Shown: piece by piece, positions 14,738-28,478 of the stretch | Position numbering within the stretch: position 1 is the stretch's first letter | How the letters are laid out: every line of letters begins with the position of its first letter | IMG/VR virus record: IMGVR_UViG_3300046474_000274 | Span: 36,425 to 100,424 of that record | Source of the DNA: a virus | Taxonomy: Duplodnaviria; Heunggongvirae; Uroviricota; Caudoviricetes | Direction: 5' to 3' (one strand) | Length of the DNA: 64,000 nucleotides | Notes under the pieces: model-generated | Told to the model about the DNA's origin: nothing | What the model saw: only the letters and a program-made list of their open reading frames with translations | The model's database searches: none | Program-made: the position numbers and the translations under genes

Positions 14738-15178
14738 ATGCATCTCGAAAACCAGGCTTCCGACGCAGCCGCATCGACCGAAGTCACGAAGATCGACCCG
14801 ACCCTGGCATCGATCCGCGCTGAGCGGGAAGCTGCTGAAGCCGAACGCGCCCGCATCCAGGCTGAGCGCGAGGAAGCAGCTCGCGTCCGCGCAAAGCGCG
14901 CCCTGCTCGGCGAAGTCCTGAACATGCAGACGGACGTGGAAGCACGCTTCCAGGCGGTGAAGGCGCAGAAGAAGCTCCTCAAGAGCCTTCGCGAAGATCT
15001 GAAGGCGCTCGACACCGATGACGAGCTGACGGCCGACGAGCTCAGGGCGCTCCTGCAGCGTGGCTACGAAGCCTACACCGGCAGCGCTCCGACGTTCCAC
15101 AAGGGCGGCGTCGTCACTGCTGACACCATCATCGGCATTCTGAAGGGTGGTCTGAGCCCTGTCCGCTTCGCTGCTTGA
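14738..15178 (+). CDS. coiled-coil hypothetical protein
   Basis: ORF track; AAGGAGAAAG RBS; followed by a double hairpin. Confidence 0.6.
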   Translation: MHLENQASDAAASTEVTKIDPTLASIRAEREAAEAERARIQAEREEAARVRAKRALLGEVLNMQTDVEARFQAVKAQKKLLKSLREDLKALDTDDELTADELRALLQRGYEAYTGSAPTFHKGGVVTADTIIGILKGGLSPVRFAA

Positions 15179-15187
15179 TTGAGATAG

Positions 15188-15247
15188 GCGCCGACAACCG
15201 TCGGGTCGGCGTCTAGGGAAGCCGGCTGCCGAAAGGCCCGGCTTCCC
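15188..15247 (+). terminator. tandem hairpins (GCCGAC..GTCGGC and GGGAAGCCGG..CCGGCTTCCC) after the gene ending at 15178
   Basis: Stable stems but no clear T-run. Confidence 0.45.
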
Positions 15248-15266
15248 ACCAGCCCACGACACCTGA

Positions 15267-15340
15267 GCCGGGGTAGCTTAGGGCAGAGCAGCGACTTTCA
15301 GAGGTCGCAGGTCGAGGTTCGACTCCTTGCCCCGGAGCCA
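15267..15340 (+). tRNA. atypical tRNA-like gene: cloverleaf with a G1:A72 mismatch and an 8-nt anticodon loop UUUCAGAG (UCA if read as a 7-nt loop)
   Basis: T-arm CGAGG-TTCGACT-CCTTG; acceptor GCCGGGG/CCCCGGA with encoded CCA; D-arm TAGCTTAGGGCAGAGC; anticodon stem GCGAC/GTCGC. Confidence 0.45.
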
Positions 15341-15968
15341 AATTCGCCCGAATGGGCAGCAGAATGCCATCTTCCTGACGGGCATGTCGGTGGGTGGAGC
15401 AGCCAACAGCGAACCCGGTTGGCGCCAGCAATGGATCGGAGGGAGTATGCCCATAGGCTCCCTCCGGAAGGTTCCGAGTTTCGCCCGAACGGGTAACGAG
15501 CTGGGGCTGCGGGATCGATAAAGGTCTTGCCGGCACAGACCGAGATAACGCTCTCGGAAGCTCCAAACAGGCACGTCTGAGGCGCTGAGAAATCGATGGG
15601 CGGGTAGCAGACAAGTCCGCGATCGACCAAGGCAGGACTCAGGACGCAAACGTCAGCGCAGGCGTGACAGGCGGGGAGAGACCCGCACAAAAGATGCCCG
15701 AAAGGGCACGTCCGGGTAGCCCAAGCAGAACGCAAGAGGCAGCTCCAATGCGGGCCAAAGTGTGAGTAGGGGATGCTAAGCCGCTTTCCAGCGATGAACA
15801 TCCGACCCTCACCCTGGACACCAATTTCACAGGAATGCCGGCGCGACTCCGGCTCGCTGACCGAGGTTGAGTAAGGAAAAGTGGGTTCAAATCCCACCGA
15901 TGCGACAGACGATCGTCGCGGGACTGGATGGGTTCCAGGGGTCTGACAGTCCGGAAAGACGGACACGA
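15341..15968 (+). ncRNA. ORF-free structured region between two tRNA(-like) genes; carries a second T-arm-like element GTGGG-TTCAAAT-CCCAC (about 15885-15905) and an 8-bp hairpin GGAGGGAG..CTCCCTCC
   Basis: No ORF with coding GC3; multiple GC-rich stem-loops; repeated TTCGCCCGAAYGGG. Confidence 0.3.
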
Positions 15969-16044
15969 GGGGTCGTGGGTGAACTGGTCCAGCCACCGGA
16001 TTGCAAATCCGTCTATGCAGGTTCGAATCCTGTCGATCCCTCCA
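15969..16044 (+). tRNA. tRNA-Cys(GCA)
   Basis: GGATTGCAAATCCGTCTA is identical to the E. coli tRNA-Cys anticodon arm; T-arm GCAGG-TTCGAAT-CCTGT; acceptor GGGGTCG/CGATCCC plus T and CCA. Confidence 0.8.
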
Positions 16045-16055
16045 ACATTCTTCCC

Positions 16056-16118
16056 GCTCATCACCTACCGCACTCCGCGACGTGATGCGCTAAAACATCA
16101 TAAGTAAGTGATTACTTA
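16056..16118 (+). promoter_or_regulatory. composite element GCTCATCACCTACCGCACTCC...GCGCTAAAACATCATAAGTAAGTGATTACTTAG before the GHKL ATPase gene
   Basis: Carries both the CATCACC element and the TAAGTAAG palindrome. Confidence 0.6.
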
Positions 16119-16132
16119 GAAGAGGCAGCACA

Positions 16133-18526
16133 ATGCAGGTTTCATCGATCGCAGAACTGGACACACACGCCGTCATCGGTGGTGGAAAAGCCGAAGCTTT
16201 CGGCATGTCAGAGTCCGCAGAATTCTTCACCGTGCTTTCAGACACGCTCTATCGCGACAAGATCCGCGCGGTCGCCCGCGAAGTGATCTGCAACGCCTGG
16301 GACGCGCATATCATGGTCGGCGCAACCGACCGCCCGATCGAGATCACGCTGACTGACCAGGAGCTTATCATCCGCGACCACGGTCCCGGTATTGCGCCCG
16401 AGCGCATGCGTCCGATCTACTGCATCTACGGCGCCTCGACCAAGGTCAAGGACGAGAACCAGACGGGCGGCTTCGGTCTCGGCTCGAAGGCACCTTTCGC
16501 CTATTCCGACCACTTCTCGGTCGTCTCGGCTCATGAAGGTCTGCGCACCGTCTACGCTGTCTCGCGCGGTGGTGCAGAGACTGACGGCAAGCCCGACATG
16601 CGCGCCATGGTCCAGACGCCGACCAAGAATTCCGGCATCACCGTCTCGATCCCGATCCGCTCGCGTGATGACCGGCTCAGGTTCGAAAGCCACATCACGG
16701 CAGTCGTCAAGCAGGGCGGCATCAAGGCGCTGCTGAACGAGCAGGAGATGTTCACCTTCGATTACACCGAAGCTCGCAAGCGCGGCTATGCCCTGTGCGG
16801 CCAGAGCGCCGATTTGCGCGAGTCCCAGGTATACGTTCTCTACGGCACCGTGCTCTATCCGGTCTCCGGCACGAACTCCGACCTGGCGCACGCCGTCAAC
16901 TCGATCTCGAACTACAAGGATCACGGCGACAAGTTCATCCTGATCGCCAAGCCCAACACCGTCGGCGTGACGCCCTCCCGCGAGTCCCTCTCCTATTCTG
17001 ATCGCACTGTCGCGACGATCCTGGGGCTGATCACCAACATCAAGAAGTCGGTCGAAGGCCACGGCCGCAAGGCTGTGAAGGAGATCATCAAGGGTCGCCT
17101 GAAGGAAGCCAAGCGCTACGAAATCCGCAGCGATATCATCAACAGCGGCAGTCGGATCTCGACCCGTGGCGAAGTCGTCACCGATGCCAAGGCGCTCGCC
17201 AAGATCGCAGCGTCCGGAAACATGGACGCATTCACGACGGCGCTGCAGCGCCACAAGATCGTCATGGACGAGATGGCGAAGAAGTATCGCGACGATCGCC
17301 GCTTCTTCCGTCGCAACCGGCACACCATGTTCCGCAACCGCAGCTACTACGGTCAATACGCCGTCTCCAGCGAGCGCGACCAGTTCCTGAACGAGTCCCG
17401 GCTTGTCCGGCGCCTGATCGCCAAGTTCGATCTTTTCGGCAGCGCGTTCGTCAGCCATTGGGACGAAATCCAGGGTCGCAAGCTGATCCCGCTCGAAGAG
17501 TTCAACCACTTCGGCGCCGTCAACCAGCGCCTTATCTTCGCACCGACGCAGCGTGACGGCTTCAAGGCAGCCCGTGAATACCACGCGCTGGCGAAGGACG
17601 AGCCTGGCTACGAGCGCAAGCTGACCCTCGTCATCATCAATCGGCGCCTGTCGCCTGAAACGCTCGACAAGATCCGCGATGCTGCAAAGCACTGGAAGAT
17701 CGACATCGAGACCACGAACTTCGCCAAGCCCATCCGTCGCAAGCGGGCTGATATCGGCATCTACTACTCGCTGCGCGATGTGAAGGAAAACAAGGACGGC
17801 TACGTCCACAAGATCGATGAGATCAAGACCCTCTTAAAGGCTAACTACTACATGCCGATGCGCGGCGGGCTCGATCGCCTGGAGATGGACAAGTCTCTCT
17901 TCCAGGTGCGTGACAAGATTCTCGAACGCTATGGCGATGTTGCCTTGGCGATGTCGAGCAAGACCGAGGCGAAGCTCAAGGCTGCCGGCGCGAAGAACAT
18001 CTACGACGCACTGTTCGCCGACCTGCAGAAGGCCAACAACAGCCGCGAGGCGCAGATCGCCTCGATGATGCAGCATGACGGGTTCATCCAGAATCCGCAT
18101 TGGCACTCGCCTGGTCGCCTGATCAACGAGCTGTGCCACAAGGACATGAAGTTCGTGACCTTCTTCTTCGGCGTCAAGCCGTCGAAGGGCACGGCACTCG
18201 AAGACGCCAAGTTTCTGATGAGCGCTCTTGGCGGCAACCGCAATAGCGGTCGCGTCAGCCGTCACAATAACTCCGTCTCGCAGGAGATGGACCGGACCTA
18301 CGCTGAGGCCAAGAAGACCTTTGCGCACCTCATCCTTGACCGTGATCAGTCGGAGAAGGTCTTCGCCTGGCTCAAGCCCCTCACCGGCATGGGCGTCTCT
18401 CAGCGTGGCGACACGTCGAAGGACGATCTCATGACCATCCTGAAGTTCCTGAAGCGGACCTTCAGCGTCAAGTCTACCCCGAACAACGACAACGCAACGC
18501 TCGAAGAAGCCAAGGAGGCAGCATGA
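16133..18526 (+). CDS. Hsp90/GHKL (Bergerat-fold) ATPase family protein, 797 aa
   Basis: ORF track; N-box AREVICNAWDA (compare Hsp90 RELISNASDA); G1 IRDHGPGI; G2 TGGFGLGSKAPF; AGAGGCAGC RBS. Confidence 0.8.
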   Translation: MQVSSIAELDTHAVIGGGKAEAFGMSESAEFFTVLSDTLYRDKIRAVAREVICNAWDAHIMVGATDRPIEITLTDQELIIRDHGPGIAPERMRPIYCIYGASTKVKDENQTGGFGLGSKAPFAYSDHFSVVSAHEGLRTVYAVSRGGAETDGKPDMRAMVQTPTKNSGITVSIPIRSRDDRLRFESHITAVVKQGGIKALLNEQEMFTFDYTEARKRGYALCGQSADLRESQVYVLYGTVLYPVSGTNSDLAHAVNSISNYKDHGDKFILIAKPNTVGVTPSRESLSYSDRTVATILGLITNIKKSVEGHGRKAVKEIIKGRLKEAKRYEIRSDIINSGSRISTRGEVVTDAKALAKIAASGNMDAFTTALQRHKIVMDEMAKKYRDDRRFFRRNRHTMFRNRSYYGQYAVSSERDQFLNESRLVRRLIAKFDLFGSAFVSHWDEIQGRKLIPLEEFNHFGAVNQRLIFAPTQRDGFKAAREYHALAKDEPGYERKLTLVIINRRLSPETLDKIRDAAKHWKIDIETTNFAKPIRRKRADIGIYYSLRDVKENKDGYVHKIDEIKTLLKANYYMPMRGGLDRLEMDKSLFQVRDKILERYGDVALAMSSKTEAKLKAAGAKNIYDALFADLQKANNSREAQIASMMQHDGFIQNPHWHSPGRLINELCHKDMKFVTFFFGVKPSKGTALEDAKFLMSALGGNRNSGRVSRHNNSVSQEMDRTYAEAKKTFAHLILDRDQSEKVFAWLKPLTGMGVSQRGDTSKDDLMTILKFLKRTFSVKSTPNNDNATLEEAKEAA

Positions 18527-25024: not shown

Positions 25025-25370
25025 GATGCGCGCACTCCTCCCCTATCAGAAGCACGCTGAGGACTTCTTCGGCATCACCAATCCCGACCGGGGCTTCTTC
25101 ATCAACGTCTATCTCCGGGAGGTCGGCACGCCTGGCGAGCATCTGGAACCGGGCAATCTCTGGGCGAACCGGAGGGAAGCTGCTGTCAACGGTCGCGCCC
25201 AGGTCAAGGGAAGCAGTGACAAGATCGCCTACCGCATTCGCGTGAAACCGAAGGGTCCGATCCCGAGGCGCCCGCCGCCCGAGCCATTCCCGTCTCGCGG
25301 GTTTTATCAGCCTTTCTATTTTCACGGGCCTTGCATGTGCCAGTCCCGTTCCATGAGGAGTTTTAGATGA
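25008..25370 (+). CDS. hypothetical protein
   Basis: ORF track 25008..25370. Confidence 0.4.
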   Translation: MSMLAKMRALLPYQKHAEDFFGITNPDRGFFINVYLREVGTPGEHLEPGNLWANRREAAVNGRAQVKGSSDKIAYRIRVKPKGPIPRRPPPEPFPSRGFYQPFYFHGPCMCQSRSMRSFR

Positions 25371-26800
25371 GCAACATCACCGGCAAGACGCTTGTTTCCT
25401 GGGGTCTGCAGCCTGGCGCCTGGTTTAAGGAGGCTCTGCCGATCGCCCGCGAAATGCGCGCCACTGGCAAGAGCGACAAGGAGATCATCCAGGCCCTGTT
25501 CCCGATGCAGGCAGCCAAGGCGATCGATGAAGGCGTGCCGCTGCGCACTAACAACATTCCATTCGGCCAGTTCATCGAGCCGGAAGGTGACGACGAGAAG
25601 GCGAATGTCGCCTCGGTTCTCGCTCATATGGACGCGCTGATGCGTGTTCCGACGATCGAGAAGGGTGCAGTCATGCCGGATGCGTGCCCTTCCGGCTCGG
25701 CGCTCGGCACCATCCCTGTCGGTGGTGTGGTCGCGACCAAGAACGCGATCCATCCGGGCTTCCACTCCGCGGACATCTGCTGCTCGATGGCGATCTCCGT
25801 CTTCAAGCGCGACACGCCTGTAGATTACGTCCTCGACATTGCGATGAAGGCGTCTCACTTCGGCGTCGGCAAGCGCACGGCATCGGAAGCGCGCCAGTAT
25901 AAGGATCTGGTGCAGTTGGTGGGCGGCTTCGATGCGAACCCCTTCCTGAAGGGCCTCGAGGATTACGCCATTCACCACTTCATGACGCAGGGCGACGGCA
26001 ATCACTTCTTCTATGTCGGGCAGCTCGAAAGCACCGGGCAGATGGCGATCGTCACGCACCACGGCTCGCGCGGTCTGGGCGGCCAGCTCTACAAGCGCGG
26101 CAAGGCAGCAGCCGAGCGTCACACGCGCATCGTCGCAGGGCGGATCCCGCTGCACAACGCATGGATCGAGGCAGATAGCCAGGTCGGCCAGGATTACTGG
26201 CAGGCGCTGCAGGCAATCCGCCTGTGGACGAAGATGAACCACTTCGCGATCCACAACATCGTCGCCAAGCGCCTCGGCAATCAGATCATCGGGCAGTTCT
26301 GGAACGAACACAACTTCGTCTTCCAGCGCTCCGACGGGCTGTTCTATCACGCCAAGGGCGCAACGCCGTCGTTCAAGGGCTTTGCGAAGGACGACCAGGG
26401 TCTGACGCTGATCCCGATGAACATGGCGCAGCCGATCCTGATCGCCGAGCACGCCGAGAATGAAGATGCCCTTGGCTTTGCACCGCACGGCGCCGGCCGC
26501 AATCTCTCCCGCACCGGGCACATCAAGCGGCTGATGGCAGAGTTCGGCGACACGCGCGGTCTGGGGCCGAATGCGATCAAGGCGATCATGGAGCGCGAGA
26601 CCAAGGGCCTCGATGTCCGCTTTTACACCGGCGACCCTGACGTTTCCGAGCTGCCGAGCGCCTACAAGAACGCGGACCAGGTCCAGGCTCAGATCGAGAA
26701 GTTCGGTCTCGCCAAGATCGCCGATCGCATTCTGCCGCGTGGCTCGATCATGGCCGGCGAAATGAAGTGGCACAAGCCCAAGAAGCCGAAGGCCGAATAA
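25367..26800 (+). CDS. rtcB: RtcB RNA 3'-phosphate/2',3'-cyclic-phosphate ligase
   Basis: ORF track; RtcB motifs GDGNHFFYVG, HHGSRGLG, NHNFV and APHGAGR; GGAG RBS. Confidence 0.9.
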   Translation: MSNITGKTLVSWGLQPGAWFKEALPIAREMRATGKSDKEIIQALFPMQAAKAIDEGVPLRTNNIPFGQFIEPEGDDEKANVASVLAHMDALMRVPTIEKGAVMPDACPSGSALGTIPVGGVVATKNAIHPGFHSADICCSMAISVFKRDTPVDYVLDIAMKASHFGVGKRTASEARQYKDLVQLVGGFDANPFLKGLEDYAIHHFMTQGDGNHFFYVGQLESTGQMAIVTHHGSRGLGGQLYKRGKAAAERHTRIVAGRIPLHNAWIEADSQVGQDYWQALQAIRLWTKMNHFAIHNIVAKRLGNQIIGQFWNEHNFVFQRSDGLFYHAKGATPSFKGFAKDDQGLTLIPMNMAQPILIAEHAENEDALGFAPHGAGRNLSRTGHIKRLMAEFGDTRGLGPNAIKAIMERETKGLDVRFYTGDPDVSELPSAYKNADQVQAQIEKFGLAKIADRILPRGSIMAGEMKWHKPKKPKAE

Positions 26801-26867
26801 CCCCTCCCGCATCCCAAAAACAACTGCGCGATACTCAATCTATCGACGCAACTGAAAGGACATGCAG

Positions 26868-28478
26868 ATGACTGCTGTTTCCGGCGTGAGTGCTCACGCC
26901 CATGACTATGACGACTTCCTGCCGTTCGCAGAAGCCGTGCGCAAGCGTTACACGGCATCGGTCGCCGGTGGTGCTCCGCTCTTCACGACCGACGCCGGCG
27001 ACCTCTGGGAGCGCTATCTCGAGGGCTTTGACGACCCGGATGAGCGCCAGCAGCACAACTGCAATTGCTGCAAGAACTTCATTCGCCATTACGGCGGCCT
27101 CGTCACCATCGACGACAAGGGTATTCAGCACTCAGCGCTCTGGGATGAGGCGCTTGTTCCGGTGTCCTTCGAGAAGGCCGCCCTTGGTCTTCGGAAGGCG
27201 GCTGTAAGGGCAACCGTCAATGGCGTCTTTCTGTCGTCCGAAACGACCTGGGGTAATGCCAAGACCGGGCTCTGGAATCACTTCTCGCTGACCCAGAGCA
27301 GCGAACGTGTCCACCGCGACCGCGTGAACACCGCGTTCCAGGTGATGGCGCAGAAGAAGCAGGACTTCGGCACGCTGAAGCATGGCCTCGCCGACTACTC
27401 CCGCGACGTTGTCGCCTCTGCAGTCAACCTGCTGGAGTCTGAAACGCTGTTTCGCTCCGAGAAGGTGATTGCGCCGGCGAAGTTCCTGCTCGCGATCCAC
27501 GACGCCTACCAGGGCAAGTTCAAGCATCGCCATGACAACCTGATCTGGAAGGCAGTCGCAACGGCCCCGGTCGGCTTCTGCACGCCGCGTTCGTCCATGA
27601 TCGGCACGCTCCTCGATGACCTGAAGGAAGGCATGAGCGTGGAGCTGGTCAAGAGCCGCTTCAAGACGAAGATGGATCCGCTGCAGTATCAGCGGCCGCA
27701 GTCAGCGCCGTCGGCAGGCAATATCGCCGTCGCCGAGAAGCTGGTCGAAAAGCTGGGCATTCAGAACTCCCTCAAGCGTCGTTTCGCCCGCCTCGACGAG
27801 GTCGAGACCATCTGGAAGCCTGCGGCACCTGCTAGTGCGCCGGCAGCGGGCGGTGTCTTCGGTCATCTGACGCCGAAGGGCGCAGCGTTCTCGATGCAGG
27901 CCGCACCCGTCGCACCGGTTAAGAACATCACCTGGGAGAAGTTCTTCCGGACGGTTGTTCCGAAGGCTCTGTCGATGGAAATGCAGATGCGTTCGGTGAG
28001 TGCCGCCTTCGTGGCGCTGGTAACGGCCGAGGATCCCGATGCCCCGCCGATCCTGCAGTGGGATAAGGAAGACAAGCGCAATCCGTTCTCCTGGTATCTC
28101 TACAGCGGTGGCTCGATGCCCGGTAATTGGAACCTGCCGTCGTCAGGCTGGATCAAGGTCAACGGCATCAGTCTGAAGCCGTCTGCCTGGCACCGCGATC
28201 CGGACGCTGAAGACAATCAGGGCAAGGGCGCTCTCTTCATCCTCGACGGCTGCCGTGACCTGCGCACGCCCGGCCTGTGCCTCTTCCCGGAGATCCTCAA
28301 GTCGAGCCTTCACGAGGTTCGCAAGACGATCGAGGCGTTCTCCCATCGCGGAACTTTGTCCGGTCAGAACGAGGCGTCCGCTTGCGGCGTCCTTTGTGGC
28401 CAGGTGGGTCTGAACTATGGCGTTCGCGTGACGACTGACCTCGGTCGCGCCGACTACCTCGTCGATCGTTGGGATTGA
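26868..28478 (+). CDS. hypothetical 537-aa protein, no recognised motifs
   Basis: ORF track 26862..28478; second ATG has better RBS spacing. Confidence 0.7.
   Translation: MTAVSGVSAHAHDYDDFLPFAEAVRKRYTASVAGGAPLFTTDAGDLWERYLEGFDDPDERQQHNCNCCKNFIRHYGGLVTIDDKGIQHSALWDEALVPVSFEKAALGLRKAAVRATVNGVFLSSETTWGNAKTGLWNHFSLTQSSERVHRDRVNTAFQVMAQKKQDFGTLKHGLADYSRDVVASAVNLLESETLFRSEKVIAPAKFLLAIHDAYQGKFKHRHDNLIWKAVATAPVGFCTPRSSMIGTLLDDLKEGMSVELVKSRFKTKMDPLQYQRPQSAPSAGNIAVAEKLVEKLGIQNSLKRRFARLDEVETIWKPAAPASAPAAGGVFGHLTPKGAAFSMQAAPVAPVKNITWEKFFRTVVPKALSMEMQMRSVSAAFVALVTAEDPDAPPILQWDKEDKRNPFSWYLYSGGSMPGNWNLPSSGWIKVNGISLKPSAWHRDPDAEDNQGKGALFILDGCRDLRTPGLCLFPEILKSSLHEVRKTIEAFSHRGTLSGQNEASACGVLCGQVGLNYGVRVTTDLGRADYLVDRWD

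Follow-up and report, generated by a model that had tools for sequence, protein, structure and literature searches.

The 64-kb window analysed here, meaning the whole stretch of DNA at its full length, comes from a ~120-kb Rhizobium phage whose closest named relatives, RHph_X66, B1VFA and V1VFA-S, share ~84% nucleotide identity with it over the nrdAB-thyX-dut genes just upstream of the locus in question. That locus is a 628-nt region (15341-15968) lying 3' of a gene for a 146-aa protein and 5' of rIIA (16133-18526), and it is bounded by two tRNA genes on the + strand, an odd tRNA (15267-15340) and a tRNA-Cys(GCA) (15969-16044). It is proposed that the region is probably a non-coding RNA (ncRNA) island within the phage tRNA locus, assembled as a mosaic of short independent modules. 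The chief value of the analysis lies in one of these modules, a covarying motif named R1, and in the picture of a modular RNA island to which it belongs.

R1 is a three-hairpin motif whose canonical copy in the window lies at 15608-15691 on the + strand and is matched at 45 bits (E = 2.9e-8) by a covariance model built from 14 copies. The family is ~70 nt long and consists of a P1 helix of 5-7 bp with the loop U[A/C]GC[G/U], a short linker, a P2 helix of the form AC-NNN ... NNN-GU, the sequence GACAR, a 5-bp P3 helix closed by a GAGAGA loop, and a final ACA. Conservation of unpaired nucleotides is concentrated in GUGACAR, GAGAGA and ACA. The window copy has every family element (P1-P2-P3, GUGACAR, the GAGAGA loop and ACA): P1 pairs 15615-18 with 15642-45, P2 pairs ACGUC (15650-54) with GGCGU (15661-65), and the linker GACAG leads into P3, in which GCGGG (15671-75) and CCCGC (15682-86) enclose GAGAGA before the tail ACAAA. 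The model finds one strong match in the window, and usually one per related or unrelated locus.

An earlier note on this DNA, drawn up from the letters of the sequence without database searches, had proposed comparative alignment for covariation as a check on the region, and R1 passes it clearly. Because the exact search pattern had forced P3 to be invariant, an ascertainment bias, the databases were rescanned with a pattern that leaves the P3 stem free (GTGACAR-N5-GAGAGA-N5-ACA). This yielded 82 further viral loci, 56 of which carry perfect 5/5 complementary stems in at least 15 different sequences, where a perfect stem is expected by chance in ~0.7% of matches. In a model-based alignment of 68 R1 copies, evaluated against shuffles and slid controls, 95.0% of the cells are paired (68.6% in the shuffles) and double-sided changes occur in 15 of the 17 pairs, including all five P3 pairs and affecting all three helices. 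The covariation score is 0.541, a value attained by none of 500 shuffles, versus 0.139 in the shuffles, and the slid controls do not exceed 0.076. An alignment fitted to the model favours the structure, and the sequences are kin; an alignment made with MAFFT only gives the same picture. So large an effect, together with the independent test on P3, makes R1 a real RNA structure under selection.

The motif is also widely distributed. The 23-mer GTGACARGCGGGGAGAGACCCGC, which forms the 3' end of the second block shared among the relatives and is 96-100% conserved across them, occurs exactly in 47 IMG/VR contigs of varied size and GC content and in seven bacterial genome contigs (Rhizobiales, Rhizobium leguminosarum, Ancylobacter, Methylocystis, Amaricoccus, Boseongicola and one unclassified proteobacterial metagenome-assembled genome). 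Altogether the IMG/VR contigs that carry R1 number more than 100; they include GC-rich as well as AT-rich sequences and range from fragments of a few kb up to 330-410 kb. Several alphaproteobacterial genomes contain it too. Among GenBank phages the R1 core was found, at this sensitivity, only in B1VFA. Rfam 15 gave no match at R1 sites even at E<=10, and a literature search with the R1 core sequence returned nothing relevant; the family is thus outside Rfam 15, and it was not set against the DNAVirus_N csRNA models (PMC10690425).

In the fetched loci (L numbers), R1, tRNAs, tRNA-like genes and a small hairpin described below (the h-hairpin) are always co-oriented. About 10 of 62 R1 copies adjoin tRNA genes, either ending 4-10 nt before position +1 (B1VFA, L034, L051, L071 and L086) or starting after the CCA end, and some of these sit inside large tRNA arrays. 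As this proportion is small, a role of R1 as a tRNA leader was rejected. Many copies start within 0-15 nt of a stop codon, with 20-25 nt left between their end and the following start codon. The neighbouring genes are varied and include DNA polymerases, ribonucleotide reductase, 5-hmdU kinase, a T7-like capsid gene and integrase; when the open reading frames (ORFs) within 6 kb on each side of 54 loci were clustered in search of a protein partner, no family recurred in more than 10 loci. One locus is peculiar. In L043 (10350-11304, minus strand) an R1 copy marks the exact point at which a T7-like RNA polymerase gene is broken into parts of 282 aa and ~600 aa: the 282-aa N-terminal ORF stops at a UAG within the P1 helix, the frame is otherwise open for 608 codons through R1, and a new ribosome-binding site and ATG follow 70 nt further on. 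Either a mobile R1 inserted here and is tolerated, or the split marks a recoding site. Stop-codon read-through or recoding as the function of R1 was rejected, in-frame continuation being found only in L043 among ~50 distinct loci.

The region that contains R1 is non-coding. Its GC content is flat across the three phases (0.61/0.59/0.61), compared with values of 0.75-0.82 at the third and 0.40-0.46 at the second codon position in neighbouring genes. Together with the detection of both flanking tRNAs by ARAGORN and Rfam, this upholds the earlier description of an ORF-free stretch between a tRNA-like gene and tRNA-Cys. The sole long ORF, of 232 aa, runs antisense from 15298 to 15996. That this frame encodes a protein is extremely unlikely, even if it is open and has been annotated as a gene on two public Logan contigs (L023 and L025, 3061-3759, minus strand): its GC content is level across codon positions, it covers parts of both tRNA genes, a Pfam search gave no domains, and an exhaustive search of 1.84 billion representative proteins returned only the ORF itself. 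Moreover, the modules beneath it are shuffled in relatives, so no co-linear protein is possible. The homology to a protein-coding gene that the earlier note had named as a ground for abandoning an RNA interpretation was therefore not encountered in these searches, and annotators should regard the 232-aa gene produced by automatic pipelines as spurious.

The modular nature of the region became apparent from a comparison of ~15 related rhizobiophages and phage-plasmids, fetched via the upstream 146-aa protein, via a conserved block 3' of tRNA-Cys and by BLAST against plasmids. The last search led to two phage-plasmids, one from Shinella and pLM21S1 from Sinorhizobium sp. LM21, the latter described as a plasmid-like prophage with kinship to RHEph10 (PMC5537653). 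In all relatives but one, 640-2300 nt of mostly ORF-free sequence separate the 146-aa gene from rIIA; the exception, V1VFA-S, is a deletion variant with only 150 nt between the two genes. Both the set of modules and their order differ between phages. Pairwise comparison showed that 15362-15474, about 15559-15693 and 15937-15968 of the window are shared, and that 15496-15558 and 15694-15936 have homologues only in near-identical copies of the same phage (L023-L025 and L031, with three substitutions in the region). A search with nhmmer using the orphan segments 15495-15607, 15710-15824 and 15825-15936 revealed no remote homologue in any fetched locus. The slot of pLM21S1 (L040 753-3059) is 2.3 kb long; it contains a module B absent from the window, a 63-aa ORF, R1, a tRNA-like gene whose T-arm is deleted, three h-hairpins and module A, as well as an HNH endonuclease ORF of 166 aa that immediately precedes tRNA-Cys. 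The slot content is thus modular, and modules are exchanged between phages.

Module A (15364-15474, + strand) is a 111-nt element that is near-invariant in rhizobiophages. It is 97-98% identical in L017, L036, L038 and L039, where the flanking genes show 72-81% identity, and 90% identical in pLM21S1; at a background identity of 80%, the probability of at least 111 of 113 matches is 5e-9. Its position is not fixed. In the window it comes first after the odd tRNA, with an h-hairpin on either side, and in L017, L036, L038 and L039 it is the last element before tRNA-Cys, preceded by a tRNA-like ...GCCA GUUUCG end. A possible fold has a CUUCC/GGAAG closure, with loop-helix complementarity between AUGCCC and GGGCAU; substitutions are too few for covariation, and its minimum free energy (MFE) z-score is -1.5. 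The near-identity could reflect strong constraint or recent lateral transfer. Elsewhere in IMG/VR module A was found only in L017, and a 23-mer from it is absent from 185,579 species genomes. A host origin was rejected, the sole metagenome contig match being a chance one within a membrane-protein gene.

The h-hairpin, GCCC-GAAN-GGGC, occurs three times on the + strand of the window: as UUC-GCCC-GAAU-GGGC-A at 15343-15358 (repeat families D1/D5), as UUC-GCCC-GAAC-GGGU-A at 15480-15495, and as AU-GCCC-GAAA-GGGC-AC at 15694-15709, directly after R1. The first two copies bracket module A as a direct repeat with a spacing of 137 nt. The earlier note had singled out the repeat TTCGCCCGAAYGGG, which indeed occurs at 15343 and at 15480, a third, variant copy lying at 15696, and the hairpin GGAGGGAG...CTCCCTCC quoted alongside it was likewise found in the region. 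The 16-mer of copy 1 recurs just 5' of tRNA-Cys in RHph_X66, and after R1 or within arrays in unrelated contigs; pLM21S1 shares the succession of module A and a copy-2-type h-hairpin. An h-hairpin follows R1 in the unrelated contigs L045, L050, L080, L084, L094 and L095, and the hairpin UUCGCCCGAAUGGGCAACGAG, often situated directly 3' of R1, is confined among the fetched loci to the vicinity of R1 or to arrays. Between the second h-hairpin and R1 lies an orphan spacer with local hairpins (15496-15607, + strand), for which nhmmer found no homologue outside the phage's own lineage and which has an MFE z-score of -0.2.

The 3' third of the region contains tRNA-like elements, all of them assigned to the + strand. 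In relatives, R1 is followed by tRNA-like RNAs of 121-135 nt (D-type; L039 1266-1391, L041 2529-2654, L035 3315-3435 and L017 2321-2455) that combine an acceptor stem and a T-arm with an encoded GCCA and lack an anticodon arm; their acceptor stems covary (GUCCAGU/ACUGGAC in L039 versus GUCCGGC/GCCGGAC in L041). The place of the D and anticodon arms is taken by a large extra domain together with a short palindromic hairpin, and in L039 and L041 this domain includes a second T-loop-like hairpin. Neither ARAGORN nor Rfam recognises these RNAs. In the window, the 115 nt at 15710-15824, beginning 18 nt after R1, are assigned with moderate confidence as a candidate tRNA-like RNA: the MFE fold closes an acceptor-like stem of GUCCGGG with CCUGGAC, followed by A-CCA and AUUUC, and no other 7-bp closure in the region leads into NCCA. 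Both the location of the candidate and its 5' strand GUCC... agree with the tRNA-like RNAs of L039, L041 and L035, to which nhmmer detected no sequence homology. Where a T-arm would be expected the candidate has a 5-bp GUGAG/CUCAC stem with a 41-nt insert and no T-loop; a canonical T-arm (5 bp with a UUCGANU loop) is absent beside the 3' acceptor strand.

Further downstream, a decayed T-arm-like relic (CUGACCGAGGUUGAGUAAGGAAAA, repeat D6) at 15856-15880 resembles CUGACCGAGGUUCGAUUCCUCG of the L039 and L041 tRNA-like genes as well as the T-arm of the odd tRNA itself. It is succeeded at 15881-15904 by the orphan T-arm-like hairpin GUGGG-UUCAAAU-CCCAC plus CGAUGCG that the earlier note had reported; we confirmed its sequence and the absence of a matching 5' acceptor strand, none being present in 15100-15900 even when G-U pairs are allowed. 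The sequence after it, CCACCGAUGC, equals the 5' flank of R1 in B1VFA, L036 and L039. The earlier suggestion of decayed tRNA genes may apply to this 3' third, where both T-arm-like elements lie. A degenerate second R1 (15895-15969), with P3 GUCCG-GAAAGA-CGGAC, is detected at 8.5 bits (E = 0.04 in 1.1 kb) when the R1 model is run with filters off, and it immediately precedes tRNA-Cys, the position that the canonical R1 occupies in B1VFA. The 32 nt at 15937-15968 correspond to the last codons of the pLM21S1 166-aa HNH gene plus a hairpin: 15937-16130 is 86% identical to L040 2862-3056, in which the HNH ORF ends GAG GTC TGA. This alignment indicates that the window retains the tail of a lost HNH homing-endonuclease gene. 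The presence of a decayed HNH gene or small ORF in the region was rejected, since tblastn with the pLM21S1 HNH protein against the intergenic region of the window gave only noise (E = 5.6).

Module B, known from the relatives (B1VFA joined 294-387, L017 2105-2198, L007 3363-3456 and L040 1118-1200), is an RNA of ~90 nt in which a 12-bp stem encloses two inner hairpins. Compensatory changes are clear in it (GGCGUUGAGUGC/GCGCUCAACGCC versus GGUGAUGAGCUC/GAGCUCAUCACC), and it contains the invariant parts UAGGAGCCCUGG, GGAUAUCACUGG and AGAGGGGUAUA; Rfam gave no match to it in L017, L007 or L002.

With these modules in view, it is very unlikely that the region is one long structured ncRNA of ~630 nt, whether tmRNA-like, Y-RNA-like, a group I intron remnant or of the GOLLD/ROOL type. 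This idea draws on the ORF-free, tRNA-flanked setting with its many hairpins and T-arm-like element, and on RtcB (477 aa), which is encoded ~10 kb away at 25367-26800 as the earlier note had remarked. The pieces are, however, separate and reordered in relatives, which is incompatible with a single co-folding unit. The same note had called the region highly structured, a description that its thermodynamics do not bear out: the MFE z-score of the whole region is -1.8 against dinucleotide shuffles, with 1 of 20 shuffles folding equally well, and sub-segments range from -1.5 (module A) through -0.6 to -0.2 (orphan spacer). Because GC-rich sequence of such composition folds similarly by chance, the evidence for structure comes from the comparison of modules and not from energy. 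An Rfam scan, another check proposed in that note, detected only the two flanking tRNAs, both at gathering score over the whole window and at E<=10 over 15150-16120, and no known family appeared at module or R1 sites in 24 related or R1-bearing loci. ARAGORN found no tmRNA and no tag peptide, including permuted forms and relaxed thresholds. At default and relaxed thresholds, with introns allowed and in mitochondrial mode, it gave no further credible tRNA, only implausible, mismatched models.

As far as these tools can detect, the negative scans also dispose of the particular identities offered earlier. For tmRNA, the CGAUGCG acceptor strand is, in addition, without a complement; a YrlA-like Y RNA has no Rfam match, and no TROVE/Rsr protein was detected among the large ORFs of the 64-kb window checked against Pfam; a group I intron lacks both an Rfam match and split tRNA halves flanking the region; and GOLLD/ROOL RNAs are ruled against by the blank Rfam result and the modularity of the region in relatives. 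In bacteria Ro60/Rsr often adjoins RtcB. The neighbour of RtcB here (25367-28478 segment) is a 538-aa protein that matches only phrog_1735, with no Pfam or PDB sequence match; it is of Ro60/Rsr size, yet the TROVE signal is absent in the Pfam scan. The suggestion of a novel structured ncRNA fares better: R1 is a covariation-supported family outside Rfam, although the region consists of separate modules and not of one 630-nt RNA. Overall, the earlier reader's observation was largely right and the interpretation partly right.

How the island might operate can be outlined as follows. It would be transcribed on the + strand together with both tRNAs, and tRNA-processing enzymes would cut it into discrete small RNAs, RNase P acting at the 5' ends of tRNAs and tRNA-like elements and an RNase E-type activity at the recurrent RUUUC after each ...CCA end. 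Modules would be moved between phages by gene conversion driven by homing endonucleases, and illegitimate recombination at the repeated GCCC-GAAN-GGGC hairpins may also shuffle them. Most speculatively, R1 might act in trans: its conserved unpaired nucleotides would engage some host component that is itself conserved, and the RNA could thereby serve, to give one example, to decoy or inhibit a host RNase or an RNA-targeting defence. A bolder proposal, which we regard as tentative and rather unlikely, is that R1 represents a mobile, usually single-copy class of phage small RNA whose unpaired nucleotides form an active site or a ligand for a host component, the island then being an accessory 'RNA arsenal' traded between phages by homing endonucleases; such RNAs could be decoys, inhibitors of RNases or of RNA-targeting defence, or small self-processing ribozymes.

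Several observations weigh against the island model. Transcription, processing sites and discrete RNA species are inferred, and a scan of the + strand for promoters and terminators found no sigma-70-like promoters and no intrinsic terminators. Since 41 of the 62 R1 loci are without any tRNA, release by tRNA processing cannot be general, and the often tight placing of R1 between stop and start codons suits a cis-acting mRNA element as well as it does a trans-acting RNA. Recent lateral transfer instead of selection could lie behind the identity of module A, which shows no covariation. A 7-bp closure with NCCA, the mark of the candidate tRNA-like RNA, also arises in 23% of shuffles. Finally, homologues of 15496-15607 and 15710-15936, which together make up about half of the 628 nt, are confined to the phage's own lineage, and since shuffled sequence folds just as well, these parts may be filler devoid of function.

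The last point leads to the view that the region is mostly junk, made up of decayed tRNA genes, scars of homing endonucleases and recombination debris in a hot spot, with only the two tRNAs functional. Among relatives the length of the slot varies between 150 nt and 2.3 kb, nearly all of it being lost in V1VFA-S; T-arm relics and an HNH tail are present in the window, and HNH genes occupy the slot elsewhere; half of the region is restricted to one lineage and has no special stability; and SegB-type endonucleases are described as remodelling phage tRNA regions (PMC13096335). We nevertheless consider this view unlikely, if not negligibly so. Compensatory changes in three helices, recurring in more than 100 unrelated viral contigs, show that R1 is selected for RNA structure, module A is conserved far beyond its flanks, and modules B and D of the relatives covary. 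The label may suit the orphan segments; it does not describe the island as a whole. A cis-acting role, in which R1 and the boxB-like hairpins would serve as processing, stability or put/nut-like antitermination signals of the tRNA-rIIA unit, appears improbable to a greater degree. It would account for the common location of R1 0-15 nt past a stop codon, with its end ~20-25 nt before a start codon or 4-10 nt before a tRNA, and for its usual occurrence once per examined stretch with no constant protein neighbour. Against it stand the heterogeneity of the downstream genes (DNA polymerase, ribonucleotide reductase, capsid, kinase and tRNAs) and the tRNA-sized, gene-like slot that R1 fills in tRNA arrays. 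Some R1 carriers are, moreover, T7-like phages whose own RNA polymerase reads the middle and late genes, which argues against an antiterminator of the host RNA polymerase. A mosaic ncRNA island therefore remains the reading that we favour as probable.

The genes and elements that border the island have features of their own. The odd tRNA (15267-15340) has a G1.A72 mismatch, an 8-nt anticodon loop (UUUCAGAG) and an encoded GCCA end; ARAGORN reports it as 'tRNA-??? (tcag)', and the Rfam tRNA model matches it at 45.3 bits. Its anticodon loop varies even between close relatives. In a near-identical phage the loop reads CUACAGAG, and 3 of the 10 differences in the whole intergenic region fall in that stem-loop; the equivalents have a 7-nt loop with CAG in L017 and L038 or with CUG in X66, L028 and L032-34, and in X66 and L017 a C replaces the expected U33. 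It looks like a fast-evolving or non-standard tRNA. The tRNA-Cys(GCA), identified by both ARAGORN and Rfam, is of a 76-nt form in the window, X66, pLM21S1 and L032/33, and of an 86-88-nt form with a long extra arm, unusual for a tRNA-Cys, in B1VFA, L017, L036, L039, L041 and L007 (for instance L002 344-430, L017 2583-2669, L007 3124-3211 and L041 2958-3044). The 88-nt gap between tRNA-Cys and rIIA (16045-16132) is strongly conserved in all relatives, with the invariant sequences CCTACCGCACTCCG and GCGCTATAA and the palindrome ATAAGTAAG..ATTACTTAG; it is probably a phage-specific promoter or operator of rIIA-rIIB, a prediction made on an element that the sigma-70 consensus scan did not pick up. 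On the other side, two strong hairpins, TAGGCGCCGAC...GTCGGCGTCTA and GGGAAGCCGG...CCGGCTTCCC, lie directly 3' of the 146-aa gene (15185-15247) and have equivalents in all relatives; they are not called intrinsic terminators because neither has a U-tract.

Small ncRNAs beside phage tRNA genes have been known since T4, and the locus described here presents such RNAs as a modular, exchangeable island. A concrete handle is offered by R1, whose ~70 nt combine textbook covariation with conserved unpaired positions and have no counterpart in Rfam. Its function is testable because a cultured carrier exists, Rhizobium phage B1VFA, in which R1 is situated directly 5' of tRNA-Cys.

The closest analogy among known systems is with RNAC and RNAD of T4 (species 1 and 2 RNAs), which lie in the T4 tRNA cluster and are cut from a tRNA precursor. 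They too are small ncRNAs of a phage with a tRNA cluster; the likeness is one of location and co-orientation. The modules of the window differ in sequence, are more numerous and are shuffled between relatives, and most R1 copies are outside tRNA clusters. The function of the T4 RNAs is still unknown (PMC9697503). The T4 tRNA region also holds the homing endonuclease SegB, a precedent for endonuclease-driven remodelling (PMC13096335). Free-standing HNH genes of phage tRNA regions have a counterpart in the 166-aa ORF in the homologous slot of pLM21S1; the window keeps its last codons plus a hairpin, but no HNH ORF or remnant detectable by tblastn. With the tRNA-like domain of tmRNA and with viral tRNA-like structures the D-type RNAs share a closed acceptor stem, a T-arm and an encoded NCCA, and 15710-15824 of the window shares the acceptor closure and ACCA; they differ in having no tag frame, pseudoknot series or G3.U70, and the window copy is without a T-loop. 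The put sites of HK022 and the nut sites of lambda (boxA/boxB) are likewise short hairpins (~15-70 nt) in phage transcripts that occur once or twice per genome. The GCCC-GAAN-GGGC hairpin resembles lambda boxB in form only, and put works without a dedicated phage protein; unlike these sites, R1 is also found in T7-like phages and within tRNA arrays. A catalogue of IMG/VR lists 8,495 'DNAVirus_N' csRNAs with a median length of 65 nt, covarying, intergenic and in some cases tRNA-like (PMC10690425), and R1, which comes from the same data source, is an object of the same kind.

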